The position numbers and the translations under genes were made by a program. From Betaproteobacteria bacterium (GTDB taxonomy: Bacteria; Pseudomonadota; Gammaproteobacteria; Burkholderiales; SG8-39): a DNA stretch of 64,000 bases. This document shows positions 5,058 to 62,128 of this stretch, piece after piece (within the stretch, counting starts at the first letter, position 1; each line of letters starts with the position of its first letter). The notes under the pieces are model-generated. The model did not search any database. It was not told the origin of the DNA and worked only from the letters and a program-made list of their open reading frames with translations. Location: contig SHXK01000002.1 in the NCBI GenBank assembly GCA_009693335.1, forward strand, positions 339 to 64,338. The letters are read 5' to 3'.

Positions 5058-5497
5058 CCTCGATCGACTTCTATTTCAACGCGGGCGACCGGTTGGCTAT
5101 CGCCTGTCGGCTCGCGGGCAAGGCGCTGCGGCAGAAAAAGCGCGTGCTGATCTACGCAGCGCAAATGGAAGTGGCGCAGAAGATTGACCGCCTGCTGTGG
5201 GCCTCGCAGGCGGTTTCTTTCATTCCGCACTGCTACACGCATGACCCCTTGGCCGCCGCTACGCCTATCCTGATCGCTGTCGGCGACACGCCGATGGCGT
5301 CACCGAACGCCGCCTGCGAGGTGCTGCTCAACCTCGCCACCGTATGCCCACCTTTCTTCGAGCGCCATGAGCGCCTGCTGGAAGTCGTGACGCAAGATGA
5401 CGAGGACAAGCTCGCCGGCCGGGCACGCTATGCGTTCTACCGCGACCGAGGTTACGCGATCCGTAATCACGACCTCTCAGGTCAGGAGCACGGATGA
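5054..5497 (+). CDS. holC: DNA polymerase III chi subunit
   Basis: The in-frame TTG at 5054 overlaps the pepA TGA (TTGA). The N-terminus LTSIDFYFN...KRVLIYA...ALW-type pattern is HolC-like. The longer listed ORF 4790..5497 would overlap pepA. Confidence 0.8.
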   Translation: MTSIDFYFNAGDRLAIACRLAGKALRQKKRVLIYAAQMEVAQKIDRLLWASQAVSFIPHCYTHDPLAAATPILIAVGDTPMASPNAACEVLLNLATVCPPFFERHERLLEVVTQDDEDKLAGRARYAFYRDRGYAIRNHDLSGQEHG

Positions 5498-5850
5498 CTC
5501 AAAAGCCGAGTCAAGGCCGGGACCCCAACCGGCTGTTCGAGCGCGTCGACGCGCTGATGAAGCGACAGCAGGAAAGCTGGCAGCGGACAGCCGAAGAGGT
5601 GCCGTTGCTGACCGAGATCGTCGAGTCCGACCCCGGGGAAGCGTCGCCGGAAGTGCTGGCGAGAGAAAAAACATTTGCGGCGGACATCGAACGGGTACTG
5701 GTGTTGCGCCTCCTTGCCGAGATGAACCAGCAGGTTGCCACCCTGCGCGCCGAACTGGAAAGGACATTGCGCCGCTCGGTGCGCATAGCGGTCGAGCACG
5801 CGTTCGCGGCACCCAAGGCAACCGCAGACAAACCCGTCGTCGGGGAGTAA
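5494..5850 (+). CDS. Hypothetical small protein between holC and valS
   Basis: ATGA overlap with the holC stop and coding-like codon usage. No recognisable motif. Confidence 0.5.
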   Translation: MTQKPSQGRDPNRLFERVDALMKRQQESWQRTAEEVPLLTEIVESDPGEASPEVLAREKTFAADIERVLVLRLLAEMNQQVATLRAELERTLRRSVRIAVEHAFAAPKATADKPVVGE

Positions 5851-5880
5851 CAGGGGAACCTCCGTTCCCCTGTTCCTGGC

Positions 5881-8682
5881 ATGGCGCTCGATAAAAGCTT
5901 CGATCCACACGCGGTAGAGAGCCGCTGGTACGCGCGCTGGGAAGCCTCGGGCTGGTTCGCGGCCGCGGGGGAAAACGCAACGCCGGAGTCGCCGGCAGCG
6001 CCCGCCTACTGTATTCAGCTCCCGCCACCCAACGTCACCGGTACGCTGCACATGGGGCACGCGTTCCAGCAAACGCTCATGGATGCTCTGATCCGCTACC
6101 ACCGGATGCGCGGCGACAACACCAACTGGGTGGCCGGCACTGATCACGCCGGCATCGCCACCCAGATCGTGGTCGAGCGTCAGTTGCAGGAAGAAGGCAA
6201 AACGCGCCACCACCTTGGTCGCGAGGGCTTCGTCAAGCGCGCCTGGGAATGGAAGCAGGAATCGGGCGCCACCATCACGCGCCAGATGCGTCGCCTCGGC
6301 GCATCGTGCAACTGGACCTACGCCGACACGGAAGGCCAGAAAGCCGGCTACTTCACGATGGACGCGAATATGTCGCGCGCCGTAGTCGAGGTGTTTGTCC
6401 GCTTGCACGAGGAAGGCCTGATCTACCGCGGCCAGCGCCTGGTCAACTGGGACCCGCAGCTCGGCACCGCGGTCTCCGATCTTGAAGTCGATAGCGAAGA
6501 AGAGGACGGCAAGATCTGGGAGATTCGCTACCCCCTGGAGGATGGCGACGGCACAACAGCAGCTTCGGTGGTGGTGGCAACCACACGCCCCGAAACGATG
6601 CTTGGCGACGTGGCTATTGCAGTCCATCCCAAGGATGACCGGTATCGAGACCTGGTCGGCAAGCAGGTGCGCTTGCCGCTCACCGAACGGAAAATTCCCA
6701 TCATCGCGGATGACTACGTCGATCCAGCCTTTGGCACTGGCTGCGTCAAGATCACCCCGGCGCACGACTTCAACGACTATGCCATCGGTCAGCGCCATCA
6801 GCTGCCGCTGATCCAGATCCTGACGCTCGAGGCGAAGATCAAGGGCACGGCCTATGCGGGACTCGATCGCTTCGAGGCGCGCAAGAAGGTTCTAGAGGAC
6901 CTGAAAGCGCAGAATTTCTTGGTTGCGGAGAAGCCCTACAAGCTGCGTGTGCCGCGTTCGGGCCGCACCGGCGTGATCGTCGAGCCGATGCTCACCGACC
7001 AGTGGTTCGTGAAGATGGAAGGCTTTGCGAAATCCAGCCTGCAGGCGGTGGCCCAGGGCGACGTGAAATTCTTTCCGCCGCATTGGACCTCGACCTACAA
7101 CCATTGGCTGGAGAACATCCAGGACTGGTGTATTTCGCGGCAGCTCTGGTGGGGTCACCAGATTCCCGCTTGGTATGACGAGCAGGGGCAGGTCTATGTA
7201 GGGAGAACCGAAGCGGAGGTTCTTGAGAAATACAAAATAAAAACAAAACTGACCAGAGATCCGGATGTCCTCGACACCTGGTTCTCGTCGCAGCTGGTGC
7301 CGTTCTCTTCGCTCGGCTGGCCGGAGAAAACCAAGGACCTCGAAACCTTTCTGCCCTCCTCGGTGCTGGTGACCGGCTTTGACATCATTTTCTTCTGGGT
7401 CGCCCGCATGATCATGGCGAGTCTGCACTTCACCGGCAAAGTGCCGTTCCGCCACGTCTACATCAACGCCATCGTGCGCGACGCCGAAGGCCAGAAAATG
7501 TCGAAGTCGAAGGGCAATACCCTGGACCCGCTCGACCTGATCGATGGCATCAAGCTGGAAGACCTGGTCGCCAAATCGACCCTCGGCCTGCTGCGTCCCG
7601 AGCACAAGGCGAAAATTGACAAGTACCTGCGCGCCCACTACCCGAACGGCATCCCGTCCTTCGGCGCCGATGCGCTGCGCTTCACCTTTGCCTCGCTGGC
7701 GAATTTCTCGCGCACCCTGAATTTCGACCTCGGCCGCTGTGAGGGCTACCGCAATTTCTGCAACAAACTCTGGAACGCGACCCGCTTCGTGTTGCTGAAC
7801 ACCGAGGGCCAGGACTGCGGCGCCGACGAGTCCCAACCGGTGGCGTTCTCGACCTGGGACCAGTGGATTATCAGCACCCTGCAGCGCACCGAGGCAGAGG
7901 TCGAAACAGGTTTCAGCAACTACCGCTTCGACAACGTCGCCACCGCGATCTACCGCTTCGTGTGGGACGAGTACTGCGATTGGTATGTTGAAATCGCCAA
8001 GCAACAGCTCGCCCGCGGCAACGAGGCCCAGCAGCGCGGCACGCGCCGCACGCTGCTGCGGGTGCTGGAGACGGTGCTGCGCCTTGCGCACCCGGTAATT
8101 CCCTTCATCACCGAGGAACTCTGGCAGGACGTCGCGCCGCTCGCCGGCAAGAAGGGCGACACCATCATGCTCGCGCCCTATCCAAAGAGTCAGCCGGAAA
8201 AAATCGACGCAGCGGCCGAAGCGGAAGTGGCGCTCGCCAAGCAGGTGGTCAACGCGGGCCGCAACCTGCGCAGCGAAATGAAAATTCCGCCTCAACAACG
8301 CATTATTTTGTATATTTCCGGCGAGTTATCTTCAGCGATCAGCAGCGCCTTGACCGCTCTTCTGCGCGTTTCGGAATTACGCAATCAGGAACTTCCCAAC
8401 TCCGATTCGCCGGTCGCCGTGGTCGGTCCGTATCGCCTGATGCCACACCTCGAGGTCGACCCGCTGGTGGAAAGGGGGCGCCTGCAGAAAGAAATCGCGC
8501 GTCTCGAAGGGGAGATCGCCAAAACGCACGCCAAGCTCGGCAACGCGTCGTTCGTCGAGCGCGCACCAGCCAAGGTGGTGGATCAGGAGCGCGCGCGGCT
8601 AGCCGGGTTTGCAGCGACTGTCAGCCAGTTGCGACAGCAACTCGACCGGCTCTCGGGCGGCGGTCTTACTTCTTCTTCATGA
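5881..8682 (+). CDS. valS: Valine--tRNA ligase
   Basis: Class I HIGH motif ([13 protein letters not shown]), KMSKS motif (QKMSKSKGN) and a C-terminal coiled coil. Confidence 0.97.
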
Positions 8683-15446: not shown

Positions 15447-16379
15447 TCAAGCGCCAAGAATCTGCCCGGGCTGGACGCTGCCCACGGCCAGCAGGTCGCC
15501 GGCAGCGACCTTTTTGCCGTCGCCCAGCTTGGCGCGCAGCACCTCGATGCGGCCGCCTTGGGCGCTCACCTGGAAGCTGGTCGGGCCGATTGCGACGATT
15601 TCGCCGATTTTTCCCTTGACCGCGCCGAAGCTACGCACCGGCACCTTTTTGCAATCAAAGATCTGCAGTTTGATACCGTTCAGGGTCGTCCAGGCCCCGG
15701 GGGCCGGATTGCAGCTGCGGATCAGGTTGTAGACCGCATCGATGTGGTTGGCCCAATGGATGCGTGCCTCGCTCTCGCGGAACCAGCCTTCGTAGGTCGC
15801 CTGCGACTCGTCCTGCACCAGCTCCCGGTGACTGCCGGCGACCACCAGGTCGGCGGCCTCCAGCATCGCCTGCACCCCCATCGGGAACAGGCGGTCGAAA
15901 TACACCGTGCCGAGCGTGTCGTCCGGACTAATGCGGGTCTCTTTTTGCAGGATCACGGGACCCTCGTCCAGGCCATCGGTCGGGCGAAAGATGGTCAGGC
16001 CGGTGGTGGTTTCGCCACGTGAAATCGGCCAGTTGATCGAACTCGGGCCGCGGTACTTCGGCAGCAGCGACGGGTGGTACTGGATGGTGCCGTGCTTGGG
16101 GATGGTCACGAAGTCCTGCGGCGCGAACTGCAGCACGAAAGCCATGATGCCGATCTGCACCTCCAGCCCTTTGAGCGCCGCTTTGGCGTCATCGTTCTTC
16201 AGCGACGGAAACTGGAATACCTGGATGCCTTTTTCTCCGGCGGCGGTCTTCAGCACATCAGGCTTGGCGCCCGGTTTTTCCGGCGCGCAGAACACGCCGG
16301 CCACCTCGTCGCCACGCGCCACAAACGCTTCCAGCACGGCCTTGCCAAAATCCTGCTGACCAACGATGGCGATTTTCAT
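15447..16379 (-). CDS. Formyltransferase-fold protein (Formyl_trans_N + Formyl_trans_C), closest by eye to the N-terminal hydrolase domain of 10-formyl-THF dehydrogenase
   Basis: 310 aa: MKIAIVGQQDFGKAV..., TIQYHPSLLPKYRGPSSINW (His without the N-x-H Asn of Fmt/PurN), TDGLDEGPV (Asp), ATYEG, PGAWT. The ATG shares one nt with the frc TGA. Confidence 0.85.
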   Translation of the reverse strand: MKIAIVGQQDFGKAVLEAFVARGDEVAGVFCAPEKPGAKPDVLKTAAGEKGIQVFQFPSLKNDDAKAALKGLEVQIGIMAFVLQFAPQDFVTIPKHGTIQYHPSLLPKYRGPSSINWPISRGETTTGLTIFRPTDGLDEGPVILQKETRISPDDTLGTVYFDRLFPMGVQAMLEAADLVVAGSHRELVQDESQATYEGWFRESEARIHWANHIDAVYNLIRSCNPAPGAWTTLNGIKLQIFDCKKVPVRSFGAVKGKIGEIVAIGPTSFQVSAQGGRIEVLRAKLGDGKKVAAGDLLAVGSVQPGQILGA

Positions 16380-17650
16380 CAGACCGCCCTTTTCGGCGGC
16401 AGCGAGAAAGCGCCCGCATTCTTCAGCGAGCCGATCTTGGCGTCGTCGTAAGCGAGCACTTCTTTAAGGATCTCGTCGGTGTGCTCGCCCAGCGTCGGCG
16501 AGCGCTCGATCTTCGCCGGCGAGGCCGACAGCTTGATCGGCATGCCGACATTCCACCACTTGCCGCGCTGCGGGTGATCGAGCTCGACCCACATCTCGCG
16601 GCCGCGCACATGCTCGTCGTTGGCGAGATCTTCGGTGCTCATGATCGGCCCGCAGGGCACGTCAAGCGGATTGAGGATCGCCATCAGTTCGCGCTTGGTG
16701 TATTTCTCGGCGAACTTGTTGATCAGCGTCCACATCAGTTGCTGGTTCTTGCGCCGCTCCGCGATGCCGGCAAGTTGCGGGTTGCTGGCCATGTCGGGCA
16801 TGCCGACATCCGGACCGATGCGCGTGGCCAGATCCTCCCACACCGCCTCCTGCACCACCACATAGAGCCAGTCGTTCGGACCGTGCGGTTTGCAGTGGAT
16901 GGCGTTGCCCAACTGGCCGCCACCGGAATCGTTACCCGCACGCGGCACATCGCCCATGTTCTGATAGGTTGGCACTGAGTACTCCGACATTGCCTGTCGC
17001 GTGAGGCGCTGGTGGTCGCGGAATTTAACGCGACACAGATTCATCACCCCGTCCATCATCGCCACTTCCACGTACTGCCCCTGACCCGTCTTGTCCGCCT
17101 GCCGGAGCGCCGCGAGCAGGCCGATCGCCAAGTGCAGGCCAGTACCCGAATCGCCGATCTGTGCACCAGTGACGAAGGGCGGGCCCTCCGGCACCCCGGT
17201 GGTGCTCATCGCGCCGCCCATCGCCTGCGCGACATTTTCGTAGGCCTTGAACTCGGCGTAGGGCCCGCTGGAGCCGAAGCCCTTGATCGAACCCATCACG
17301 ATCTTCGGGTTGAGTTCGTGGATCTTCTCCCAGGTGAAGCCAAAGCGGTCGAGCACGCCGGGGCCGAAGTTCTCCATGATCATGTCGCATTTCTTCAGCA
17401 GGTCGACAAACACCTGCTTGCCCTCGTCGCTTTTCATGTTGACGGTGATCGAGCGCTTGTTGCAGTTGAGCATGGTGAAGTACAGGCTGTCGGCCTTGGG
17501 TATATCGCGCAGTTGCCCGCGTGTCGCGTCGCCTGCCGGGTTCTCGAACTTGATCACGTCAGCCCCCATCCAGGCGAGCAGTTGCGAGCAGGTCGGCCCC
17601 GCTTGCACGTGGGTCATGTCGAGAATGCGGACTCCCTTAAGTGCTTCCAT
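16379..17650 (-). CDS. frc: Formyl-CoA:oxalate CoA-transferase
   Basis: Family III CoA-transferase with a Frc/YfdW-like N-terminus (GVRILDMTHVQAGPTCSQLLAWMGADVIKFE). Sits immediately downstream of oxc. Confidence 0.92.
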   Translation of the reverse strand: MEALKGVRILDMTHVQAGPTCSQLLAWMGADVIKFENPAGDATRGQLRDIPKADSLYFTMLNCNKRSITVNMKSDEGKQVFVDLLKKCDMIMENFGPGVLDRFGFTWEKIHELNPKIVMGSIKGFGSSGPYAEFKAYENVAQAMGGAMSTTGVPEGPPFVTGAQIGDSGTGLHLAIGLLAALRQADKTGQGQYVEVAMMDGVMNLCRVKFRDHQRLTRQAMSEYSVPTYQNMGDVPRAGNDSGGGQLGNAIHCKPHGPNDWLYVVVQEAVWEDLATRIGPDVGMPDMASNPQLAGIAERRKNQQLMWTLINKFAEKYTKRELMAILNPLDVPCGPIMSTEDLANDEHVRGREMWVELDHPQRGKWWNVGMPIKLSASPAKIERSPTLGEHTDEILKEVLAYDDAKIGSLKNAGAFSLPPKRAV

Positions 17651-17666: not shown

Positions 17667-19421
17667 CTATTTCTTTTTTGCGGTCGGATTCAGGCTCGTG
17701 ATGCGGCCGCTTTCGGTGCCGGCGGTTTCGTCGATGACAGCATTGATGAGGGTGGGCTTGCCCGAACGGATGGCTGCTTCCATGGCCTGGCGCAACTCGG
17801 CCGGCTTGGTGACGTGTACCCCAATGCCACCGAAAGCCTCCATCAGCTTGTCATAGCGCGCCCCCTTGACGAATACGGTGGGCGCCACATCGGGGCCGCC
17901 GGTCGGATTGACATCCGTCCCCCCGTAGACGCCGTTATTGTTGAAGATCACCACGCAGACCGGCAGGTTGTAGCGGCAAATAGTCTCCACTTCCATGCCG
18001 GAGAAGCCAAAAGCGCTGTCGCCCTCGATCGCGATCACCGGCTGGCCGCTGACCACCGCGGCGGCGACGGCGAAGCCCATGCCAATGCCCATGATGCCCC
18101 AGGTACCCACGTCCAGGCGCTTGCGCGGTCGGTACATGTCGACGATGCTGCGGGTGAAGTCGAGTGCGTTAGCGCCTTCGTTGACCAGAATGGCCTCCGG
18201 GTTGGCCTTGATGATGTCACGCACTACGTTCAGCGCGCTGTGAAAATTCATCGGCGCCGGATCACGTGCCAAGGTCTCGGCCATCTTGGCGAGGTTCTTC
18301 CCCTTGCGCTCGGCAATGGCCGAGAGCCACTCGGCCGGCGGCTTGGCCCAGTGGGTGCCCGCGGCCTTGATGGCGGTCAGCAGCGCCGAGACGCAGGAAC
18401 CGATGTCGCCCACCAGCGGGGCTTCGATACGGACGTTGCTGTCCATTTCCTGCGGCGAAATATCGATCTGGATGAACTTTTGTGCGCCCCAGGCCTTAGC
18501 GTCCTTGCCGCCCCAGGTCTTGCCCTTGCCTTGGGAGAGCAGCCAGTTCAGACGCGCGCCGACCAGCATCACCACGTCAGCCTCGGGCAGCACGAAAGAA
18601 CGGGCGGCAGCAGCAGACTGCTCGTGCGTGTCGGGCAGCAGGCCCTTGGCCATGGACATGGGCAGGTAGGGGATGCCGGTGCGCTCGATGAGGGCGCGGA
18701 TGTCCGCGTCGGCCTGTGCGTAAGCGGCGCCCTTGCCCAGCAAGATCAGCGGACGCTTGGCGCTTTTCAGGAGTTCGAGGGCGCGTTGCACCGCGTCCTC
18801 CGCCGGAATCTGGCGCGGCGCCGGATCGACCACCTTGATCAGCGATTTTCTGCCGGCTTCCGCGTCCATGGACTGGGCAAAGAGCTTCGCCGGCAGGTCG
18901 AGATAGACGCCGCCCGGGCGGCCGGAGACGGCGGCGCGGATCGCGCGCGCCACGCCCACCCCGATGTCCTCGGCGTGCAGCACGCGGAAAGCGGCCTTGG
19001 CGAGCGGCTTGGCGATGGCCAACTGGTCCATCTCCTCGTAGTCTCCCTGCTGCAGGTCGACGATCTCGCGCTCGCTGGAGCCGCTGATGAGGATCATCGG
19101 GAAGCAATTGGTGGTGGCGTTGGCGAGAGCCGTCAAGCCGTTGAGGAAGCCGGGGGCGGACACCGTCAGACAGATGCCCGGCTTTTGCGTCATGAAACCG
19201 GCGATGGCGGCGGCGTTGCCGGCGTTTTGCTCGTGGCGGAACGAAATCACGCGCAAGCCTGCGGCCTGGGCCTTGCGGGTGAGGTCAGTGATCGGAATGC
19301 CGGGCAGACCGAAAATAGTGTCGATGCCGTTCAATTTAAGGGCATCGATGACCAGGTGAAAACCGTCGGTCACTGGTGATGGTGCATCGGTTACTACGAC
19401 TTGAGGTTCGACAGCGCCCAT
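17667..19421 (-). CDS. oxc: Oxalyl-CoA decarboxylase (ThDP-dependent)
   Basis: The listed ORF was trimmed to the ATG at 19421. ThDP motif [31 protein letters not shown]; Oxc-like N-terminus [23 protein letters not shown]. Confidence 0.92.
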
Positions 19422-19476
19422 AAAGACCCCTCTCGGAAAAGTCAAAAATGATAGTTTTTCACTCCTGCCGCCGACC

Positions 19477-19490
19477 TTGACTGCGGTCAA
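19477..19490. promoter_or_regulatory. FNR/CRP-type palindromic box TTGACTGCGGTCAA between oxc and the Crp/Fnr gene
   Basis: Perfect TTGAC-N4-GTCAA. The box centre is 62.5 nt from the oxc ATG. Exactly 23 nt further on the minus strand is the -10-like TATCAT (19448..19453). The box ends 29 nt before the regulator ATG. Confidence 0.55.
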
Positions 19491-19518
19491 GCTTTTTCAG
19501 TCTAATGAGCAGTTCCCC

Positions 19519-20130
19519 ATGACCGCCATCGCCAACCACCCGCAACGCAACACCCTGCGCCTGCAATTGCGCGAGAACCTGCTCCTCTGGGCCATGCGCC
19601 CGGAGCAGTGGGAGGCGCTGGAACCCCTGCTGGTGATAGGCGACTACCGCAAAGGCGACCGTCTGGCGCGACAGGGGGATGAGGAAATGGTCCAGTTCTT
19701 CATCCTCGAGGGCATGGTCAAGCGCGTGGTGTCAAACCCCGAGGGCCACGAAATGATCCTGCGCTTCGCCGCCGAAACCGAGATGGACACCTCGTTCGCA
19801 GCCTGGCGCCTGCGCACCCCCATCCCTTATTCTATCGTCGCGGTAACCAAGGCGCGCACTGCCGAGCTACCGATGCCGCGGTGGGTCGAGTTTCTCGAGC
19901 GGCAGCCTGAGGTGAAGTTGAAGTTCGAGTACCAGGTCATGAAGCTGATGTCGGAGGTGATGGCGCACACCATCACCCTGCACCTGCTGGACGCCCCCGG
20001 ACGGCTGTCGCGGTTTCACCGCAAGCATCCTGAGCTCGCCGGCAAGATCCCGAAGAAGGAACTGGCCGCCTACCTCAACCTGACTCCCGAAACCCTCTCC
20101 CGCCTCAAGCAGAAGCTCGGCCGTCAATGA
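19519..20130 (+). CDS. Crp/Fnr family transcriptional regulator (no cysteines)
   Basis: cNMP-binding-like beta-roll (GDRLARQGDEEMVQFFILEGMV) and C-terminal HTH KKELAAYLNLTPETLSRLKQKL with an FNR-type E--SR recognition helix. The ATG at 19519 is preferred over the TTG at 19477, which lies inside the box. Confidence 0.85.
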   Translation: MTAIANHPQRNTLRLQLRENLLLWAMRPEQWEALEPLLVIGDYRKGDRLARQGDEEMVQFFILEGMVKRVVSNPEGHEMILRFAAETEMDTSFAAWRLRTPIPYSIVAVTKARTAELPMPRWVEFLERQPEVKLKFEYQVMKLMSEVMAHTITLHLLDAPGRLSRFHRKHPELAGKIPKKELAAYLNLTPETLSRLKQKLGRQ

Positions 20131-20177: not shown

Positions 20178-21689
20178 TCAGATCCCCCGGCGCAGCTTCG
20201 ACCAGAGCATTGACATCAGCGGCCAGAAGAGCAGAAACAGCGCCAGCCCGGTCAGCGAGCCCACCAGCGCATTGGAGAAGAACACCGACATGTCGCCCTG
20301 CGCCACCAACATCGCCTGCCTGAACGAGGATTCGGCCCGATCCCCCAGCACGATCGCCAGCACTAGTGGTGCCAGCGGGTACTGCAGCTTCTTGAAGACG
20401 TAACCCATGACGCCAAACACCAGCATCATCCAGACATCGAAGATCGAGTTGTGCACGGTGTAGGCGCCGATGGCGCAGATCACCATGATGATAGGCGCGA
20501 TCACCGAGAACGGCACTCGCAGGATGGCGGCGAACAGCGGCACGCAGGTAAGCACCACGATCAGTCCCACGATATTGCCGAGGTACATGCTGGCGATCAG
20601 GCCCCACACGAAATCCTTCTGCTCAACGAACAGCAGCGGGCCGGGCTGCAAGCCCCAGATGAGCAAGCCGCCCAGCAGCACCGCCGCAGTCGGCGACCCA
20701 GGCACACCTAGCGTGAGCATCGGCAGCAGCGCAGCGGTGCCCGCCGCGTGCGCCGCTGTTTCGGGCGCCACCACACCCTCGACTATGCCAGTGCCGAACT
20801 TGTCGCCGTCCTTCGAGAAGCGGCGCGCCACGCCGTAACTCATGAAGGAAGCCGGGGTGGCGCCGCCCGGCACGATGCCCATAAAGCAGCCGACCGCCGA
20901 GGAACGAATGGACGTCAACCAGTACTTCGGCAATTCCTTCCAGGTCTCGAGTACGACTTTTATGTTCATCTTCGCCTGCGCGCCCTTGAAAGCGAGGCCC
21001 TCCTCCAGCGTGAGCAATATTTCGCCGATGCCGAACAGGCCAATGACCGCGATCAGGAAATCGAATCCGGTCAGCAGGTGCGTCGAGCCGAAGGTCAGGC
21101 GCAACGTACCGGTCACCGGGTCGGTGCCGACTGCGGCGAGTGCGAAACCGAGCATCATCGTGGCCAGCGTCTTGAACGGCGGCTCCTTCGACATGCCGAC
21201 GAAGGCGCAGAAAGTGAGCAGGTAGACCGCGAAAAACTCCGGCGGCCCGAATTCGAGGGCGAATCCCGCCACGATCGGCGACAGGAAGGTGATCACGATC
21301 ACCGCCACCAGCGCGCCGACAAACGACGAAGTGAAGGCTGCTGTCAGCGCCGCCCCAGCGCGCCCTTTCTGCGCCAGCGGATAGCCGTCGAAGGTGGTCG
21401 CCACCGACCAGGGTTCGCCGGGAATATTAAAGAGGATGCTGGTGATCGCCCCACCGAAGAGCGCGCCCCAATAGATGCAGGAGAGCAGGATGATCGCCGA
21501 GGTGGTGCCGCCAGGCGCCTGCGACATGCTGAAGGTGAGCGGCAGCAGAATCGCCACGCCGTTGGCCCCGCCCAGTCCGGGCAGCACGCCGATGATCACG
21601 CCGAGCACGATGCCGGTGAACATCAGCGCGATGTTCTTCAGCGTCAGCACGACAACGAAGCCCTGCAGCAGCGACTGGATTTCGTCCAT
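20178..21689 (-). CDS. tctA: Tripartite tricarboxylate transporter large permease TctA
   Basis: 503-aa polytopic membrane protein with the TctA pattern (GVLPGLGGANGVAILLPLTF, GIVPGGATPASFMSY). Confidence 0.9.
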   Translation of the reverse strand: MDEIQSLLQGFVVVLTLKNIALMFTGIVLGVIIGVLPGLGGANGVAILLPLTFSMSQAPGGTTSAIILLSCIYWGALFGGAITSILFNIPGEPWSVATTFDGYPLAQKGRAGAALTAAFTSSFVGALVAVIVITFLSPIVAGFALEFGPPEFFAVYLLTFCAFVGMSKEPPFKTLATMMLGFALAAVGTDPVTGTLRLTFGSTHLLTGFDFLIAVIGLFGIGEILLTLEEGLAFKGAQAKMNIKVVLETWKELPKYWLTSIRSSAVGCFMGIVPGGATPASFMSYGVARRFSKDGDKFGTGIVEGVVAPETAAHAAGTAALLPMLTLGVPGSPTAAVLLGGLLIWGLQPGPLLFVEQKDFVWGLIASMYLGNIVGLIVVLTCVPLFAAILRVPFSVIAPIIMVICAIGAYTVHNSIFDVWMMLVFGVMGYVFKKLQYPLAPLVLAIVLGDRAESSFRQAMLVAQGDMSVFFSNALVGSLTGLALFLLFWPLMSMLWSKLRRGI

Positions 21690-21706
21690 GCGTCAGTTCA
21701 GCCCCG

Positions 21707-22213
21707 TCAGTTGAGCCCCAACAGGGCCTCGAGCGGACCCTTGGGCAAGGGAATCCTGAACCAGAACTCGAAAATCAGGAAAAACACCAGGCTGTTGCCG
21801 ATCGACACCGCAGCCACCTTCCACCACGTGTACTTGCCGAGCCAGCGCATGAATAAGGCGACGAACAGTGCCGAGGCCACGTAAATGCCGATCCAGCCGA
21901 TCAGCCCGACATACACGGCGGTCGGCACCAGCACCGACAACACCAACTTCAACTGCTCGACCTCGACGAAACTGCGATTCTTTTCCTTAGTCTCGGCGAG
22001 CCCCGCCATCAGGTTGATCAACGCGGAAACGCAGATGATGACGCCGATGTAGAAGGGGAAATACCCTGTCTGGGGGCCATCCTCACGCCAGCCAAAACCG
22101 AGCCGCGCGCTGTCGAAGATAACGATAGCGCCGAGCGCAAAAAAAACGGCTGCCACCACCGTTTCGGCGACCCGGTAACGAAATGCCGGCTTTCCCCCGC
22201 TGCCTTCAGTCAT
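21707..22213 (-). CDS. tctB: Tripartite tricarboxylate transporter small subunit TctB
   Basis: The listed ORF was trimmed to the ATG at 22213. Four hydrophobic helices, located between tctC and tctA. Confidence 0.75.
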   Translation of the reverse strand: MTEGSGGKPAFRYRVAETVVAAVFFALGAIVIFDSARLGFGWREDGPQTGYFPFYIGVIICVSALINLMAGLAETKEKNRSFVEVEQLKLVLSVLVPTAVYVGLIGWIGIYVASALFVALFMRWLGKYTWWKVAAVSIGNSLVFFLIFEFWFRIPLPKGPLEALLGLN

Positions 22214-22232
22214 GCCCGCCCCTAATAGCAAA

Positions 22233-22254
22233 AGCGGGGGCCACGACCCCCGCT
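22233..22254 (-). terminator. Intercistronic hairpin (attenuator) between tctC and tctB
   Basis: 8-bp GC stem AGCGGGGG/CCCCCGCT with a 6-nt loop, followed on the minus strand by TTTGCTATT. This is typical of a partial terminator after a binding-protein gene. Confidence 0.4.
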
Positions 22255-22272
22255 CGTCTCGGTGCACTCAGA

Positions 22273-23286
22273 CTACTGTCCGGCGATAAACCTCGCGGCC
22301 TTCATCAACTGAATATGTCGCGCCTCTTCGCGCGCAACCCAGTCCGCGTATTCCTTGCCCTCGAGCGAAGTCTGATTGAACGCCCCGCGCTCCATCAGGT
22401 CCTTCCACTCCGGCGTGGCTTGGACTTTCCTGAACAATTCAACGTAGTACTGCACTTGGGCCGGCGTCACGCCACCCGGCATGAAAATGCCGCGCAGCAT
22501 CAGGTAGTCCACATCCAGCCCGCTTTCCTTGCAGGTCGGAATGTCGGACCAGGACATGGTGTCAGTGACCTTGGTCTTGTAAGGCATGCGCTTGGGGTCG
22601 AACACGCACAAGGGCTTCAGCTTGCCGCCGCGCCAGTGCGCCACCGCCTCAATCGGGTTGTTCACCGTGGAATCCGCGTGGTTGCCCACCAGCTGGACCG
22701 CCACGTCCCCGCCGCCCTTGAACGGAACGTAGATGAACTTGGTGCCGGTCAACTGCTCGATCGCGGCGGTGATGATCTGGTCTTCCTGTTTCGCGCCGGT
22801 GCCCGCCATCTTGAACTTGTTCGGGCCCGCCGCCTTGGCTGCTGCGATGTATTCCTTGGCCGACTTGTAAGGCTTGGACACGTTGGTCCAGAGGACGAAC
22901 TGGTCGAGCGCCAGCATCTTGACGGGGGTCAGGTCACGCCAGTTAAACGGCACCCCGGTAGCAAGTGGCGTGGTGAACAGATTCGACAGTGTAATGATGA
23001 TCTTGTGCGGGTCGCCCTGCGCGCCCTTGACGTCAAGAAAGCCCTCGGCGCCCGCGCCGCCCGCCTTGTTGACCACCACCATCGCCTGCTTCATCAGCTT
23101 GTGCTTGGCGATGATGCCCTGCGCAGCGCGCGCCATCTGGTCCGCGCCGCCGCCGGTGCCGGCGGGAATGATGAATTCGACCGTCTTGGTGGGCTCCCAA
23201 GCCTGGGCAAGAACCGCTTGCGGCAGCGCCGCCATAGCCGTCATGGCCACCATCGATCCTGCAACACGTTCGAACAGATTTCGCAT
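22273..23286 (-). CDS. tctC: Tripartite tricarboxylate transporter substrate-binding protein TctC (Bug family)
   Basis: The listed ORF was trimmed to the ATG at 23286 with a GGAGG SD. Signal peptide, then the Bug motif VEFIIPAGTGGGADQMAR. Confidence 0.9.
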   Translation of the reverse strand: MRNLFERVAGSMVAMTAMAALPQAVLAQAWEPTKTVEFIIPAGTGGGADQMARAAQGIIAKHKLMKQAMVVVNKAGGAGAEGFLDVKGAQGDPHKIIITLSNLFTTPLATGVPFNWRDLTPVKMLALDQFVLWTNVSKPYKSAKEYIAAAKAAGPNKFKMAGTGAKQEDQIITAAIEQLTGTKFIYVPFKGGGDVAVQLVGNHADSTVNNPIEAVAHWRGGKLKPLCVFDPKRMPYKTKVTDTMSWSDIPTCKESGLDVDYLMLRGIFMPGGVTPAQVQYYVELFRKVQATPEWKDLMERGAFNQTSLEGKEYADWVAREEARHIQLMKAARFIAGQ

Positions 23287-23341
23287 AATCGCTCCTCCTA
23301 TCGGGAACTGGGATTCTGATCGCCGCGTGGCGTGTTCGCCC

Positions 23342-23355
23342 TTGATGACGGTCAA
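23342..23355. promoter_or_regulatory. FNR/CRP-type box TTGATGACGGTCAA upstream of tctC
   Basis: Near-palindrome overlapping the terC stop codon. The centre is 62.5 nt from the tctC ATG, and 23 nt downstream on the minus strand is the -10-like CAGAAT (23313..23318). Confidence 0.5.
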
Positions 23356-24107
23356 GAATTCCCTGCTTGTTCGACCGGCCCCCCTTTTACGGCGGCTGCC
23401 TGCCGTTTCGCAAGCCACAGCCCCCAAGCGACCACGATCACCGCGCCAGCCACCCCAGCCACCAGCTCCAGGTTCAAGCCGCCCAGCTTGGGCTTGCCAC
23501 CATCGATCTGGATCCCCGAGAGGCCATTCATCCATGCCAGCGCCACCGGGTCCGTGACCAGCATCTCGCCGGCGACCAAGCCGATCAGCGCCGCTCCAAT
23601 GGTGATGATCGCCGGGTAGCGATCCATCAGGGTCACCAGCAGCGTGGCGCCGAACACCACCAGCGGGATCGAGATCGCCAAGCCCAGAATCAGCAGCGTC
23701 ATGCTGCCGCCCGCCGCCGCGGCCACGGCAATCACGTTGTCCAGGCTCATCACCAGGTCGGCGATCAAGATAGTCTTGATTGCCGCCGTCAGGTTGTCGC
23801 TGGCGTTGACATCGTCACCCTGGTGCGCGGGCACCAGCAGCTTGATGCCGATCCAGAACAGCAGCAGGCTGCCGACGATTTTCAGCCAGGGCAGGGTCAG
23901 CAGAGCGACGGCGAATACCGTAAGGATGATGCGCAGCACCACCGCCGCGCCGGCGCCCCACAAGATCGCCTGCTTCTGCTGCTTGGGCGGCAAGGAACGG
24001 GCCGCCAGTGCGATCACCACCGCGTTATCGCCTGACAGAACGATGTTGACCCCGATGATTTTCAGCAGGCCGATCCAGAATACCTGCGTGGCGAGTTCTT
24101 CAAGCAT
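23352..24107 (-). CDS. TerC family integral membrane protein
   Basis: TerC signature LSGDNAVVIALAA and a second SLDNVIAVAAAA repeat. Starts 8 nt after the fhs stop. Confidence 0.85.
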   Translation of the reverse strand: MLEELATQVFWIGLLKIIGVNIVLSGDNAVVIALAARSLPPKQQKQAILWGAGAAVVLRIILTVFAVALLTLPWLKIVGSLLLFWIGIKLLVPAHQGDDVNASDNLTAAIKTILIADLVMSLDNVIAVAAAAGGSMTLLILGLAISIPLVVFGATLLVTLMDRYPAIITIGAALIGLVAGEMLVTDPVALAWMNGLSGIQIDGGKPKLGGLNLELVAGVAGAVIVVAWGLWLAKRQAAAVKGGPVEQAGNS

Positions 24108-24115
24108 GGGCTATT

Positions 24116-25786
24116 TTAAAACAGTCCGACCACTTTGCCATCCACCAGGTCGATTTTTTCCGCCGAGGGCACCTTCGGCAAGCCGGGCATGGTCATGATG
24201 TCGCCGCAGATCATGACCACGAACTCGGCGCCCGCCGCCAGGCGCACCTCGCGCACGTTGAGCACGTGATCGGTGGGCGCGCCGCGCGTCGCCGCGTTGG
24301 TGGCGAAGGAAGACTGGGTCTTCGCCACGCACACCGGGTAGTGGCCATAGCCTTCGTCTTGCAAGCGTTTGATCTGGGCGCGCACCTTCGCATCCGCGGT
24401 CACATCTGCCGCCCGGTACACCTTCTTGGCGATCTTGTTGATCTTGTCCCAGAGGGTGTCGGCATCCTCATATACGAAGCGCGGGGTCGAGGGCTGGTCG
24501 CACAGGCCGACCACGATCCTCGCCAGTTCGGCGGCGCCCTTGCCGCCGTCGCCCCAGTGCGTCGCCAGCACCACCGGGACGCCCAGCTTTTTCATTCTCG
24601 CGTTCAACATCTCAAGTTCCGCCGGCGTGTCGAGGTTGAAGCGGTTGATCGACACCACACAGGGGATGGCGTACACCTGGGAAACATTCTCGACGTGGCG
24701 CTCCAGATTCACCAGGCCCTTTTCCAGCGCGGCCAGGTTTTCCTTGTTGACTTCCTTCACGTCCACACCGCCGTGGTATTTCAGCGCCCGCACAGTGGCC
24801 ACGATCACCGCGGCATTCGGCCGCAAGCCAGTCTTGCGGCATTTAATATCGAGGAACTTCTCACCGCCCAAGTCGGCGCCAAAACCGGCTTCGGTGACCA
24901 CGTAGTCGGCGAGCTTCAACGCACTCTGGGTGGCGATCACCGAATTGCAGCCATGCGCGATGTTGGCGAACGGACCGCCATGGATGAAAGCCGGATTGCC
25001 TTCCAGCGTTTGCACCAAGTTGGGGGCCAGCGCGTCCTTGAGCAACACGGTCATCGCGCCGTGCGCCTTGAGGTCACGCGCATGCACCGGCTTGTTGTCG
25101 CGCGTATAGGCAACCACGATGCTACCGAGGCGTTTTTTCAGATCATCGAGCGAAGTCGAGAGACAGAAAATCGCCATCACCTCCGAGGCCACCACGATGT
25201 CGAAGCCGTCCTGCCGCGGGTAACCGTTGGCGGTACCCCCCAGCGCGACCACGATCTCGCGCAAAGCCCGGTCATTCATGTCGACCACGCGCTTCCACTG
25301 GATGCGGCGCACGTCGATGCCCAGTTCGTTGCCCTGGGTGATGTGGTTGTCGAGCAGCGCCGCGAGCAGATTGTTGGCCAGCGCGATAGCGGAGAAATCC
25401 CCCGTGAAGTGCAGGTTGATGTCCTCCATCGGCACCACCTGCGCATAACCGCCCCCCGCCGCGCCGCCCTTCATGCCGAATACCGGCCCCAGGGAAGGTT
25501 CGCGCAAACAGATCATCGCTTTCTTGCCGATGTGGTTGAGCGCGTCGCCCAGACCGACCGTGGTGGTGGTCTTGCCCTCGCCGGCCGGCGTCGGCGACAT
25601 CGCCGTGACCAGGATCAGCTTGCCGTCCTTTTTTGACTTGAGGGTATCGAGATACGGCAGCGACACCTTCGCCTTGTAGTGCCCGTAGGGCTCGAGGTGA
25701 TCTTCGGCGATGCCGAGCTTGTCCTGCGCCACTTTGGCTATGCGCTGCATTTTCGCTGCTTGCGCGATCTCGATATCGGACGACAT
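24116..25786 (-). CDS. fhs: Formate--tetrahydrofolate ligase
   Basis: 556 aa with the P-loop [15 protein letters not shown]; FTHFS pattern throughout. Confidence 0.96.
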
Positions 25787-25813: not shown

Positions 25814-28624
25814 TTAGGGGTAGATCTCGGCCAGCGAACGGCCCTTGCCGTAACCCGGATTGCCTGGCCGTGCACCGCCCTTGCTGACCTTCACGGCGCA
25901 ATATTTGAACTCGGGGATCTTGCCGAAGGGATCGAGCTTCGGGTTGGTGAGCATGTTGGCCGCCGCTTCGTAGAACGCGAACGGGATGAACACCGCACCG
26001 CGCGGCGTTCCTTCGTCGGCTCTTGCATACAAAGAAATCTGGCCCCTGCGCGAAGTCACTGTGAGGATATCGCCCGGTCTGGCGTCCAGCGCGGCGATAT
26101 CCAGCGGATGCATCGAGCACACCGGTTCAGGTTCGAGGGCGTCCAGCACTCCCGCCCGTCGCGTCATGGCGCCGGTATGCCAGTGTTCCAGCTGCCGCCC
26201 CGTGATCAGGACCACGGGGTAGGCCTCATCCGGCCGCTCGTCGGCCCGAATCAGGTCCGCTGGCACGAACTTGGCGCGACCAGTGGCGGTCGGAAACACC
26301 TCGGTGAACACCACCGTGGTCCCCGGATCGCCCTCGTTCTCGCAGGGGTAGACCACGCAGGAATCGCGCTCCAGGCGCTCCCAGGTGATGCCGGCGATCG
26401 AATTCATGCCTTTGCGCATTTCATTCCAGACTTGTTCCGGTTTGTCATAGGACCAGTTCAAACCCAGTCGTTGCGCGAGTTGATTGATGATCCAGAGATC
26501 CGCCTTGGCCTCACCGGGGGGCTCAATCGCCTTGCGGCCTAGCTGCACCATGCGGTCGGTATTGGTGACGGTGCCGTCTTTTTCCGGCCAGGCCGTGGCC
26601 GGCAGCACCACGTCGGCGAGATAGCAGGTCTCGGTGAGGAAAATGTCCTGCACCACCAAATGCTGGAGCTTGGCCATCGCGGCGCGTGCATGGTCCGCGT
26701 CCGGATCGGACATGGCCGGGTTCTCGCCCATCACGTACATGCCGCGGATGCGACCGGCGTCGGCTTCCTGCATGATCTCGACCACCGTGAGGCCGGGCTT
26801 GTTTTCCAGCGTGGTTCCCCACAGTGCCTCGAAGCGCTGCTGGGCCTCGGGACTGTCCACCCGCTGGTAATCCGGAAACATCATCGGGATCAGGCCCGAG
26901 TCCGAGGCCCCTTGCACGTTGTTCTGGCCACGCAGCGGATGCAGACCGGTGCCCACGCGCCCCACCTGCCCGGTCATCAAGGAGAGCGCAATCAGGCAGC
27001 GCGCATTGTCGGTGCCGTGCACGTGCTGGGAGATCCCCATGCCCCAGAGAATCATCGAGCCCTTCGAGGTAGCGAACAGGCGCGCCACCTCGCGAATGGT
27101 CTGCGCCGGAATGCCGCAGATCGGCGCCATTTTCTCGGGCGAGAAACTCTTGGCGTTTTCTTTCAGGGCCTCAAAGCCGCTGGTTCTATCGGCAACAAAC
27201 TTCTTATCCACCAGATCTTCGTCGATAATGGCGTGGATCATCGCGTTCAGCAGCGCCACATCGGTGTCGGCGTTGAACTGCAGGAAGTAGGCCGCGTGGC
27301 GCGCGAGCTCGGTGCGGCGCGGGTCGGCGATGATCAGCTTCACGCCGTTCTTCGCCGCGTTCTTCATCCAGGTGGCGGCCACCGGATGGTTGACGGTGGG
27401 GTTGGCGCCGATGATGAACACCACCTCAGCGTTCATCACGTCGCTCACCTGGTTGGAAACCGCGCCCGAGCCCACGCCTTCGAGCAGCGCGGCGACTGAG
27501 GATGCGTGGCACAGGCGCGTGCAGTGATCGACGTTGTTCTGGCCGAATCCCGTGCGCACCAGCTTCTGGAACAAGTACGCTTCTTCGTTCGAGCCTTTGG
27601 CGGAACCGAAACCGGCCAGCGCAAAGCGGTCCTGATCCTTGATTTTTCTCAAGCCTGCAGCGGCGAAATCCAGGGCTTCTTCCCAACTGGCTTCGCGGAA
27701 CGCCTCTTTCCAGTTCGCCGGATCGACGGTGAAATCCGCCGATTTCTTCATGCCTGCTTTTCTGATCAACGGCTTGGTCAGGCGTTGCGGGTGCTGCACG
27801 TAGTCGAAACCGTAGCGCCCCTTGACGCACAGGCGTCCGTGGTTGGACGGGCCGTCGCGGCCGCTGACGAACTTGATGACGTTGCTGCTCTTTTGCACGT
27901 GGTAAGTAAGCTGACAGCCAACGCCGCAAAACGGGCACACCGAGTCCACTTTCTTGTCCACTACTTCCAGGCCCGCCTCGCGCGCGGGCATCAGCGCGCC
28001 GGTGGGACAGGCCTGCACGCACTCGCCACAGGCAACGCAAGTGGAGGCGCCCATCGGGTCGTCCTGGTCAAAGACGATCTTGGCGTGCTCGCCACGGAAC
28101 GCAAAACCAATGACATCGTTCACCTGCTCCTCACGGCAGGCGCGCAGGCAGCGTGTGCACTGGATGCAGGCGTCCAGATTCACCGCGATCGCCGGATGGG
28201 AAATGTCGGCTTTCGGCTGTTGCCTCGCTGCGAATCTCGGTTTGCCAACCCCAAGCTTGCGTGCCCATACGTCAACCTTGTTGTTGAGCGTGTGCTGCGT
28301 CTGCGGCATGTCGGAGAGCAGCAGCTCGAGCACCATTTTCTGCGAGGCCAGCGCGCGCGGACTGTCGGTGCTGACCTCCATGCCTTGCGTCGGATAACGG
28401 CAGCAGGAAGGTGCCAGCACGCGCTCGCCCTTGACCTCGACCACGCAGGCGCGGCAGTTGCCATCGGGGCGCAGCGTGCGCGAGTAGCACAGATGCGGGA
28501 TGGAAATCCCGTTGCGGCGCGCCGTCTCGATGAGGAGCTCATCGGGCCGACCGATTACCGTTCGGCCGTTCAACTTGAACTCGATCGGCAGCGTCGCCAA
28601 CTGCTGGTTGCTGATGCGGTCCAT
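25814..28624 (-). CDS. fdhA: NAD-dependent formate dehydrogenase alpha subunit (Mo/W-bisPGD, Fdh1A/FdsA type)
   Basis: N-terminal NuoG-like 2Fe-2S (CYSRTLRPDGNCRACVVEV), 4Fe-4S motifs (CIQCTRCLRACRE, CVACGECVQACPTGAL, CPFCGVGCQL) and a molybdopterin oxidoreductase core with an active-site Cys (HCTRLCHASS). No in-frame TGA. Confidence 0.95.
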   Translation of the reverse strand: MDRISNQQLATLPIEFKLNGRTVIGRPDELLIETARRNGISIPHLCYSRTLRPDGNCRACVVEVKGERVLAPSCCRYPTQGMEVSTDSPRALASQKMVLELLLSDMPQTQHTLNNKVDVWARKLGVGKPRFAARQQPKADISHPAIAVNLDACIQCTRCLRACREEQVNDVIGFAFRGEHAKIVFDQDDPMGASTCVACGECVQACPTGALMPAREAGLEVVDKKVDSVCPFCGVGCQLTYHVQKSSNVIKFVSGRDGPSNHGRLCVKGRYGFDYVQHPQRLTKPLIRKAGMKKSADFTVDPANWKEAFREASWEEALDFAAAGLRKIKDQDRFALAGFGSAKGSNEEAYLFQKLVRTGFGQNNVDHCTRLCHASSVAALLEGVGSGAVSNQVSDVMNAEVVFIIGANPTVNHPVAATWMKNAAKNGVKLIIADPRRTELARHAAYFLQFNADTDVALLNAMIHAIIDEDLVDKKFVADRTSGFEALKENAKSFSPEKMAPICGIPAQTIREVARLFATSKGSMILWGMGISQHVHGTDNARCLIALSLMTGQVGRVGTGLHPLRGQNNVQGASDSGLIPMMFPDYQRVDSPEAQQRFEALWGTTLENKPGLTVVEIMQEADAGRIRGMYVMGENPAMSDPDADHARAAMAKLQHLVVQDIFLTETCYLADVVLPATAWPEKDGTVTNTDRMVQLGRKAIEPPGEAKADLWIINQLAQRLGLNWSYDKPEQVWNEMRKGMNSIAGITWERLERDSCVVYPCENEGDPGTTVVFTEVFPTATGRAKFVPADLIRADERPDEAYPVVLITGRQLEHWHTGAMTRRAGVLDALEPEPVCSMHPLDIAALDARPGDILTVTSRRGQISLYARADEGTPRGAVFIPFAFYEAAANMLTNPKLDPFGKIPEFKYCAVKVSKGGARPGNPGYGKGRSLAEIYP

Positions 28625-38936: not shown

Positions 38937-39775
38937 GACGCACTCCTTGCTTTGATGCTTCTGAACTTTCTGGTGGTTTCGGTGATGGCCCGTTCCGTTG
39001 GCAAGCGCTCCATGCTGGAGGCACCGTAGAAGCCGTTGCAGGCCGGGCAGTTCCTGAGAATGAAGCTGGCGTCCTTGGGCTCAGCGATCGGCCCGCCGTG
39101 GCACAAAACGATCACCTCGGGGCTGACCGCGCGCGCCGCCGCTGCCCAGCGCTCGATCAGCGGCACGCAATCCTTCAGCTTGCGCGCGGTCCCGGCACCG
39201 ATTGCGCCGCCCGTAGTGAGGCCAAGGTGGCAGACGATGATGTCAGCGCCCGCTTTCGCCATGTCGCGCGCATTGTCCTCTGAGAACACGTAGGGCGTCG
39301 TCAGCAGAGCCAATTCACGAGCTGTCTTGATGACTTCCACTTCCAGCGCATAACCCATGCCGGTCTCCTCGAGCTGAGCGCGGATCGTGCCGTCGAACAA
39401 CCCCACCGTGGGAAAGTTCTGGATGCCAGAAAAACCAAGCTCGCAAAGGGTCTTTAAGAAGTGTTCTTTTATTAGAAATGGATCAGTGCCATTGACGCCC
39501 GCCAGCACGGGCGTCCGCTGCACCACCGGCAGCACTTCGCGCGCCATGTCCAGCACGATGTCGTTGGCGTTGCCGTAGGCCATCAAGCCCGCTAGCGATC
39601 CGCGGCCCGCCATGCGGTAGCGGCCCGAGTTGTAGATTACGATCAAGTCGATGCCGCCCGCCTCCTCGCATTTCGCGGACAGTCCGGTGCCGGCGCCGCC
39701 GCCAATGATGGGTTCGCGGCGCTTCACCTTAGCGCGCAGTTTCTTCAAGATCTCGTCGCGCGGGATGCGGGCCAT
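38933..39775 (-). CDS. Phosphoenolpyruvate hydrolase-like TIM-barrel protein (partner of UPF0261/Tm-1-like proteins)
   Basis: [57 protein letters not shown] is the typical N-terminus of this family. Confidence 0.8.

Positions 39776-60883: not shown

Positions 60884-60887
<4 letters not shown>
60003..60887 (-). CDS. sucD: Succinate--CoA ligase (ADP-forming) alpha subunit-like
   Basis: [31 protein letters not shown], and [11 protein letters not shown] (phosphohistidine loop). The segment [18 protein letters not shown] is atypical. Confidence 0.88.
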
Positions 60888-62065
<1,178 letters not shown>

Positions 62066-62128
62066 GCGGCCGTGTGCTCTCTGAGGGGGTGGGATATTAG
62101 CATCGGCATGCTTGCTAGAATCATTGAC

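Follow-up and report, generated by a model that had tools for sequence, protein, structure and literature searches.

What is a formyltransferase doing at the end of an oxalate operon? Activated formate exists in cells in two forms, formyl-coenzyme A (formyl-CoA) and 10-formyl-tetrahydrofolate (10-formyl-THF), and we know of no free-standing enzyme that interconverts them. The question is raised by a stretch of 64,000 nucleotides (hereafter, the window) from a Betaproteobacteria bacterium (GenBank assembly GCA_009693335.1, contig SHXK01000002.1, positions 339 to 64,338), in which the oxalyl-CoA decarboxylase gene (oxc) and the formyl-CoA:oxalate CoA-transferase gene (frc) are followed by a gene for a 310-residue formyltransferase-like protein, here named X. 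On balance, the analysis favors X as a formyltransferase acting between formyl-CoA and 10-formyl-THF; that CoA serves as donor or acceptor and that the reaction is reversible we infer from homology and gene context.

The product of X matches GenBank MSQ87739.1 in every residue; that entry comes from a betaproteobacterial metagenome-assembled genome and is recorded as methionyl-tRNA formyltransferase. Pfam analysis detected Formyl_trans_N (E value, 6.3e-28) and Formyl_trans_C (E value, 1.8e-14) and no other domains. The stop codon TGA of frc (16381-16379) and the start codon ATG of X (16379-16377) have base 16379 in common, where the minus strand reads GGTCTGATGAAAATC, and by this overlap X is translationally coupled to frc. 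The open reading frame (ORF), the sequence and the Pfam result thus confirmed the two-domain protein of 310 residues with an ATG sharing one base with the frc stop that the original prediction had described, and the motif blocks quoted there (MKIAIVGQQDFG, IQYHPSLLPKYRG, DGLDEGP, ATYEG, and PGAWT) were all present in the translation. The same prediction had placed the formate-tetrahydrofolate ligase gene (fhs) 5 kb from X; its coordinates put it approximately 8 kb upstream. Since database searches returned X homologues numbering in the thousands, X is considered a real gene.

The linkage of X to frc and oxc, on which the original prediction had staked its case, was found to be conserved in two samples. 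The betaproteobacterial sample contained one genome per species and comprised 80 Burkholderiales/Betaproteobacteria loci with 73–89% identity to X, in which frc adjacency was counted only for loci with at least 900 nt of upstream sequence (n = 71). In this sample, frc adjoined X in 71/71 loci, oxc was present in 54/55 and tctA in 41/43, and fhs lay within 10 kb upstream in 27/33. The second sample was a metagenome scan seeded on the X protein of plasmid pLA6_002, which yielded 80 diverse loci with 47–81% identity to that seed. Here, frc was adjacent in 47 of the 57 loci with room upstream, and fhs followed X directly in 42 of the 62 loci with room downstream, giving the order oxc-frc-X-fhs. 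X next to frc, often just before fhs, was observed on well over a hundred bacterial contigs. The most constant partners of X are a formyl-CoA-using enzyme (Frc) and a 10-formyl-THF-making enzyme (Fhs).

Individual loci (labeled L, and relatives labeled P, in our own numbering) demonstrated how far this arrangement extends. X sits between the 3' end of frc and fhs in P0124 (54% identity), and P0308 of the Xanthobacteraceae/Pseudolabrys family (50–53% identity) has the order tctCBA-gntR-oxc-frc-X-fhs-lysR-fdh, while P0138 (51% identity) carries gntR-frc-X beside fdh. In P0121 (64% identity), as in L085, the order is X-tctCBA-crp-oxc-frc, and the X-frc linkage therefore survives rearrangement. 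The frc gene also adjoins X in L081, L082, and L099, and the linkage reaches Xanthobacteraceae and Rhodobacterales lineages whose proteins are only 42–54% identical to the window X. A roseobacter in culture, Paracoccaceae strain La 6, carries oxc-frc-fmt_2-fhs_2 on plasmid pLA6_002, with fmt_2 42% identical to X; this informative locus came from a plasmid collection that contained no close relative of X. In neighbor-joining (NJ) trees, the oxc-frc-X-fhs sequences formed one clade with 98% bootstrap support, apart from Fmt and ArnA.

The pLA6_002 locus (L092; CP031587.1, 50000-99000), from a marine roseobacter, has the order oxc-frc-fmt_2-fhs_2-tct and lies inside a plasmid island that also contains ppc, two sucCD-like pairs, an NAD-type formate dehydrogenase, glyA2, a class-V aminotransferase, hprA, folD_2, and folA. 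A gene annotated as ketopantoate reductase is found in the same island; it may encode an oxalyl-CoA reductase, the role suggested for Methylobacterium PanE2. The X protein of strain La 6 is QEW23307.1; X proteins nearly identical to the pLA6_002 version are present in Marinibacterium profundimaris, whose orthologue is WP_233152038.1.

The X-frc linkage persists where Oxc is replaced by a different thiamine pyrophosphate (TPP) enzyme. In 14 of the 80 metagenome loci (L109, L111, L113, L116, L117-L119, L123, L127, L145, L150, L155, L165, and L168), the TPP enzyme encoded before frc-X is not a canonical Oxc and is 25–27% identical to the window Oxc. The best NCBIfam hits of the L116 enzyme (4916-6655, plus strand) both fell short of their cut-offs, with 450 vs 587 bits for PRK05858 "acetolactate synthase" and 363 vs 600 bits for an actinobacterial 2-hydroxyacyl-CoA lyase, and the frc of L116, the one locus of this kind that was scanned, is bona fide (703 bits). 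The noncanonical enzyme may be another lyase that yields formyl-CoA, or else an oxalyl-CoA decarboxylase that has diverged. AceK, the isocitrate dehydrogenase kinase/phosphatase that switches the glyoxylate shunt, is encoded beside variant TPP-frc-X clusters in L116 (1495-3273, minus strand) and L165 (5699-7477, plus strand), and in L165 its gene directly follows X. In two loci nested in the frc-linked clade (L138:8603-10815 and L141:2284-4121), X is followed by an acyl-CoA dehydrogenase gene and an ECH_2 (hydroxyisobutyryl-CoA hydrolase-like) gene; these neighbors again encode CoA-ester enzymes but are unrelated to oxalate.

In the superfamily to which X belongs, 10-formyl-THF serves as the formyl donor. 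To assign X to a family, curated NCBIfam equivalog cut-offs were used as tests, and phmmer was run against PDB sequences. X fell below the cut-offs for Fmt (TIGR00460; 152.3 bits, cut-off 201.5), ArnA (115.8 bits, cut-off 777), PurN (45.4 bits, cut-off 150), and PurU (25.8 bits, cut-off 286), and the L116 homologue was likewise below the Fmt cut-off with 156.8 bits. The six best PDB matches of X were all the N-terminal hydrolase domain of 10-formyl-THF dehydrogenase (FDH, ALDH1L1), headed by 1s3i (191.7 bits; E value, 1.4e-55). The best Fmt structure, 4iqf, scored 128.6 bits (E value, 2.3e-36), ArnA scored approximately 105 bits, and HypX scored 33 bits (E value, 2.6e-7). According to BLASTP, X shares 42% identity with residues 1-246 of vertebrate ALDH1L1 and 29% with E. 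coli Fmt. The phmmer ranking and these identities upheld the earlier view that X resembles the ALDH1L1 N-domain more than Fmt or PurN.

The active-site residues pointed in the same direction. The triad H102/S104/D138 of X aligns with H106/S108/D142 of FDH and does not vary among 25 members of the clade. Where Fmt, ArnA, PurN, and PurU have the Asn of the N-x-H motif, X has Q100 and ALDH1L1 has I104, and the catalytic His and Asp are kept in X, which bears out the predicted catalytic His without the N-x-H Asn. The motif of X reads YHPSLLP, with HP where Fmt has HG, and the loop-1 insertion of Fmt has no counterpart, since the PEKPGAK--P segment of X is 5–6 residues shorter than E. coli PDRPAGRGKKLMP. 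The phylogenetic comparison with Fmt and ArnA that had been called for placed X outside both in NJ trees whose deep nodes were poorly supported; PurU, PurN, and ArnA fell outside the X clade, and the nearest bacterial neighbors of ALDH1L1 were P0172 and P0182, neither of which is frc-linked. An identity as the housekeeping Fmt was rejected on the grounds of the sub-cut-off score, the motif, the missing loop, and the gene context. Wherever the sources name X-family sequences, the name is "methionyl-tRNA formyltransferase," despite scores below the Fmt equivalog cut-off. This label is a systematic misannotation across a large family.

Other possible signatures of function were also sought. A search of the longer family representatives for X fused to frc, to fhs, or to a carrier domain turned up nothing but aldehyde dehydrogenase fusions of the ALDH1L1 type, a single GNAT fusion, and tandem duplications. 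No PP-binding or Aldedh gene stood next to X in the window or in the related loci. P0134 (loci L087-L089) groups with the window clade, has RPYEGP in place of GLDEGP, with loss of the catalytic Asp, and IHA in place of YHP, and lacks the frc linkage; P0134 probably represents a paralogue that has degenerated or been repurposed.

It is known that the N-domain of ALDH1L1 hands the formyl group to a 4'-phosphopantetheine thiol and that its "hydrolase" activity in vitro needs millimolar 2-mercaptoethanol (PMC2788200; PMC6802093). The N-domain of HypX transfers formyl from N10-formyl-THF to CoA, giving enzyme-bound formyl-CoA (PMC6802093; PMC12134894), so that the statement of the original prediction that no formyl-CoA:THF formyltransferase had been characterized must be revised: 10-formyl-THF-to-CoA formyl transfer is already carried out by this domain. 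Because the frc-X-fhs order recurs, a formyl link between CoA and folate is the most economical reading of X. The reaction would be formyl-CoA + tetrahydrofolate <-> 10-formyl-tetrahydrofolate + CoA-SH, with the free CoA thiol as second substrate. Catalysis would rest on His102, Ser104, and Asp138, in the manner in which the ALDH1L1 N-domain passes its formyl group to the pantetheine thiol. X would thereby couple the formyl-CoA pool of Frc and Oxc to the folate one-carbon (C1) pool served by Fhs, and it would presumably work near equilibrium, with the net direction set by mass action.

The direction of net flux was considered by stoichiometry. If a denotes flux through Oxc, f through Frc, r from oxalyl-CoA to glyoxylate, h formyl-CoA hydrolysis, x the flux of X toward folate, and o any other oxalate activation, then flux balance gives f + o = a + r and a = f + x + h, and hence o = r + x + h. 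For each formyl-CoA sent to folate, one more activation must therefore be paid for, at a price of at least one ATP equivalent, and without another activating enzyme x = -(r + h), so that X runs toward formyl-CoA. The original prediction had expected an ATP saving relative to Fhs; this fails stoichiometrically, as Frc needs formyl-CoA as CoA donor for the next oxalate. On this stoichiometric inference, the formyl-CoA-forming direction is modestly favored. With housekeeping 10-formyl-THF, X alone could start the Frc/Oxc cycle. Together, Fhs and X would carry out formate + ATP + CoA -> formyl-CoA + ADP + Pi by way of 10-formyl-THF and could likewise start the cycle, with Fhs taking over the supply once it is running. 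Flux in this direction would also replace the thioester lost to spontaneous hydrolysis of formyl-CoA and to any withdrawal of oxalyl-CoA for assimilation. The role would be one of accessory priming, like that proposed for E. coli YfdE.

YfdE has been proposed to prime the oxalate cycle, and the reported half-life of formyl-CoA is 1.9 h, vs 92 h for acetyl-CoA (PMC3720670). The need for priming, the short half-life of formyl-CoA, and the serial order frc-X-fhs all make the formyl-CoA-forming direction fit, and the pairing of X with fhs suggests enzymes working in series rather than as alternatives. The free-energy change of Fhs run in reverse is only +5 kJ/mol (PMC8085960), and 10-formyl-THF therefore carries approximately ATP-level group-transfer energy. 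By our own estimate, the equilibrium of X lies perhaps a few kJ/mol toward 10-formyl-THF, the thioester being similar or slightly more energetic.

This estimate, anchored on the published Fhs value (PMC8085960), would mildly favor the opposite net flux at equal concentrations, namely formyl-CoA + THF -> 10-formyl-THF + CoA, by which oxalate-derived C1 units would enter folate and the serine cycle in parallel to Fhs. The pLA6_002 module is also found inside a serine-cycle/C1-folate island (glyA2, folD_2, hprA, class-V aminotransferase, ppc, and sucCD-like genes), as such a flux would suggest. However, every formyl-CoA diverted in this way costs at least one ATP for a second activation, which leaves no saving over Fhs; the adjacency of X and fhs in 42/62 loci fits serial better than parallel working; and no serine-cycle genes accompany the cluster in the betaproteobacterial loci. 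We consider folate-ward flux unlikely, but the most credible of the alternatives. Rather less likely still is that X is a plain, PurU-like 10-formyl-THF hydrolase that frees formate and THF, for example against folate trapping under a flood of oxalate-derived formate. The closest characterized relative is indeed called a hydrolase domain and hydrolyzes 10-formyl-THF in vitro, its catalytic His and Asp are kept in X, and formate overflow is reported to trap folate as 10-formyl-THF in other systems (PMC10132981). Against this, a hydrolase and Fhs in one operon would form an ATP-wasting futile cycle, the ALDH1L1 activity depends in vitro on thiol at millimolar levels, with a pantetheine thiol as the natural acceptor, X reaches only 26 bits on PurU models against a cut-off of 286, and it would be left unexplained that frc, rather than fhs, is the most constant neighbor.

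A formyl acceptor of another kind was also weighed, whether in a second Met-tRNA formyltransferase or in an enzyme for an amino sugar or an amine metabolite, with the place in the operon being regulatory or historical. The fold is common to Fmt, ArnA, and sugar N-formyltransferases, databases name X as Fmt, and unlinked relatives have varied neighbors. X nevertheless scores below the Fmt cut-off, lacks the loop-1 insertion and the N-x-H-G motif, and is placed by both trees apart from the Fmt/ArnA group; the name fmt_2 given by Prokka in strain La 6 implies a separate fmt, and no amine-handling or sugar-nucleotide genes recur beside X. This explanation is accordingly judged very improbable.

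Several observations weigh against formyl transfer between CoA and 10-formyl-THF, or against its proposed direction. Frc/Oxc systems such as those of E. coli and Oxalobacter are not known to depend on X. The stoichiometric argument assumes that there is no other oxalate-activating enzyme, and L085 has a second family-III CoA-transferase that could potentially supply the flux o. Seven of the 80 metagenome loci are linked to neither frc nor fhs, and relatives at 37–45% identity (P0129, P0134, P0140, and P0172) have unrelated neighbors and no frc/fhs link; since such unlinked relatives exist, the wider family has other roles. The betaproteobacterial clade of the window joins the frc-X-fhs clade at only 17% support in NJ trees with unresolved deep nodes, and a sister relation of the two was not demonstrable in these trees. 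An AlphaFold2 model of X (pLDDT 87.8) superposed on FDH-Nt, Fmt, and ArnA-N with TM scores of 0.81–0.91, and the predicted fold does not separate FDH-like (TM 0.86) from Fmt-like (TM 0.90); the modeled fold confirms the superfamily and leaves the subfamily undecided. Finally, when linked and unlinked relatives were aligned with ALDH1L1, Fmt, and ArnA, no CoA-binding motif or clade-specific residues stood out, nor was the X C-domain distinctive in its net charge.

The formyl-CoA:10-formyl-THF formyltransferase proposed here stands in a larger gene cluster, the features of which are listed in Table 1.

Table 1. X and its neighboring genes in the window.
Feature	Position	Strand	Evidence
X, candidate formyl-CoA:THF formyltransferase, 310 aa	15447-16379	minus	ALDH1L1-N-domain-like, free-standing
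frc, formyl-CoA:oxalate CoA-transferase	16379-17650	minus	TIGR03253, 551 bits vs cut-off 504
oxc, oxalyl-CoA decarboxylase	17667-19490	minus	TIGR03254, 989 bits vs cut-off 739
Crp/Fnr-like regulator, divergent, between tctA and oxc	19477-20130	plus	cNMP_binding (2.7e-9), HTH_Crp_2
tctA, tctB, tctC	20178-23535 (tctA 20178-21689; tctB 21707-22267; tctC 22273-~23300)	minus	Pfam TctA, TctB, TctC
terC-family membrane protein, between fhs and tctC	23352-24107	minus	Pfam TerC (2.8e-46)
fhs, formate-tetrahydrofolate ligase	24116-25786	minus	PF01268 (7.5e-264); NF010030, 898 bits vs cut-off 652
NAD-linked formate dehydrogenase-like pair	25814-28624 (alpha); 28634-30304 (Nuo51/2Fe-2S beta-gamma fusion)	minus	Pfam Molybdopterin, Fer2_4, Complex1_51K, 2Fe-2S_thioredx

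The tctA, tctB, tctC, terC, and fhs genes and the formate dehydrogenase pair all lie on the strand of X, upstream of oxc-frc. The tctABC genes encode a tripartite carboxylate transporter, which is presumed to take up oxalate, and tct genes beside oxc were also found in alphaproteobacterial loci. An equivalent formate dehydrogenase pair adjoins the X clusters of L082, L099, and L175. The oxc ORF as listed begins at TTG, and the TIGR03254 match begins at residue 40; the true start is likely an ATG near 19421. A Crp-like regulator gene occupies the equivalent place in L085, whereas alphaproteobacterial clusters have a GntR/FCD regulator there instead. The position of terC between fhs and tctC is kept in most betaproteobacterial loci and was unexpected in an oxalate/formate cluster; the terC ORF overlaps an over-long tctC ORF (22273-23535), whose start is probably near 23300.

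On the other side of X, the genes recurring downstream in the betaproteobacterial clade have no evident oxalate or C1 role, and the readable ones look, by eye, like signaling or secretion proteins. X is therefore taken as the last gene of the module, in agreement with its earlier description as the last gene of the operon. A simple scan 3' of X detected no convincing intrinsic terminator. Elsewhere in the window, we noted a 941-aa fusion of PP-binding, AMP-binding, and acyltransferase domains (54126-56951, plus strand), an ABC-ATPase fused to UPF0261 beside a PEP_hydrolase-like gene (38933-41946, minus strand), and a sucCD-like pair of the succinyl-CoA or malate thiokinase type (60003-62263, minus strand).

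A full-text literature search found no account of the X gene or of a free formyl-CoA:THF formyltransferase, and only HypX emerged; oxalotrophy reviews from 2024 and 2026 made no mention of such an enzyme. The fold of X and the precedent for its chemistry in HypX and ALDH1L1 are already known; the subfamily, the substrate pairing, and the pathway role are new as proposed here. If the proposal is correct, X would supply a missing accessory step of oxalotrophy, by which the autocatalytic Frc/Oxc cycle is started and the lability of formyl-CoA is survived, and a systematic naming error in thousands of "methionyl-tRNA formyltransferase" sequences would be corrected. Formyl-CoA is the entry metabolite of engineered chain-extension pathways using 2-hydroxyacyl-CoA lyase (HACL) or Oxc-type enzymes; at present these pathways obtain it with AMP-forming ligases or with formate kinase plus phosphotransacetylase. 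Fhs and X would give synthetic C1 biology an ATP-to-ADP route from formate to formyl-CoA, and X is a small, soluble-looking protein found in cultured strains.

A bolder view, which we offer tentatively and regard as possible but doubtful in its entirety, is that Fhs and X constitute a natural ADP-forming route from formate to formyl-CoA with which aerobic oxalotrophs set the Frc/Oxc cycle going, keep it replenished, and pay for the net withdrawal of oxalyl-CoA toward glyoxylate, that X is the first free-standing metabolic 10-formyl-THF:CoA formyltransferase, and that the animal ALDH1L1 N-domain plausibly arose from its bacterial family. The proposed activity of X, if correct, also suggests that the thiol-directed chemistry of that domain predates the carrier-domain fusion.

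Among known systems, YfdE (ACOCT), the acetyl-CoA:oxalate CoA-transferase of E. coli, is a functional analogue only. Like X, it is an accessory to Frc and Oxc encoded in the same operon and has been proposed as a primer (PMC3720670), but it has the unrelated fold of family III CoA-transferases and forms oxalyl-CoA directly from acetyl-CoA without folate. Fmt shares with X the N + C domain architecture, the fold (TM approximately 0.9), the SLLP motif that binds 10-formyl-THF, and both catalytic residues, His and Asp. It differs in its loop-1 PAGRGKK insertion, used for tRNA recognition and missing in X; X is not beside def and lies outside the Fmt clade. The N-domain of HypX (HoxX), the aerobic CO-ligand synthase of [NiFe]-hydrogenase (PDB 6j0p), belongs to the same superfamily and is reported to perform the same chemistry as proposed for X, at a distance of TM 0.65 and 17–18% identity. 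Unlike the proposed reaction of X, CoA is a tightly bound prosthetic group in HypX and formyl-CoA is not released, but decarbonylated in a fused enoyl-CoA-hydratase-like (ECH) domain that X lacks. In the HypX triad His74/Asp80/Asp109, Asp80 replaces the Ser that X keeps, and HypX has no known link to oxalate metabolism.

The closest counterpart is the N-domain of ALDH1L1/FDH (PDB 1s3i, 2bw0, and 4qpd), the best sequence match with 42% identity over 247 residues. Both proteins have a two-subdomain fold of approximately 310 residues (TM 0.86), a His-Ser-Asp triad, and the HPSLLP, ATYEG, and PGAW blocks, and both lack Asn at the N-x-H position. In contrast to ALDH1L1, X is a free-standing bacterial protein without a fused ACP-like or aldehyde dehydrogenase domain, its proposed thiol is that of free CoA, and its gene is embedded in an oxalate/formate operon.

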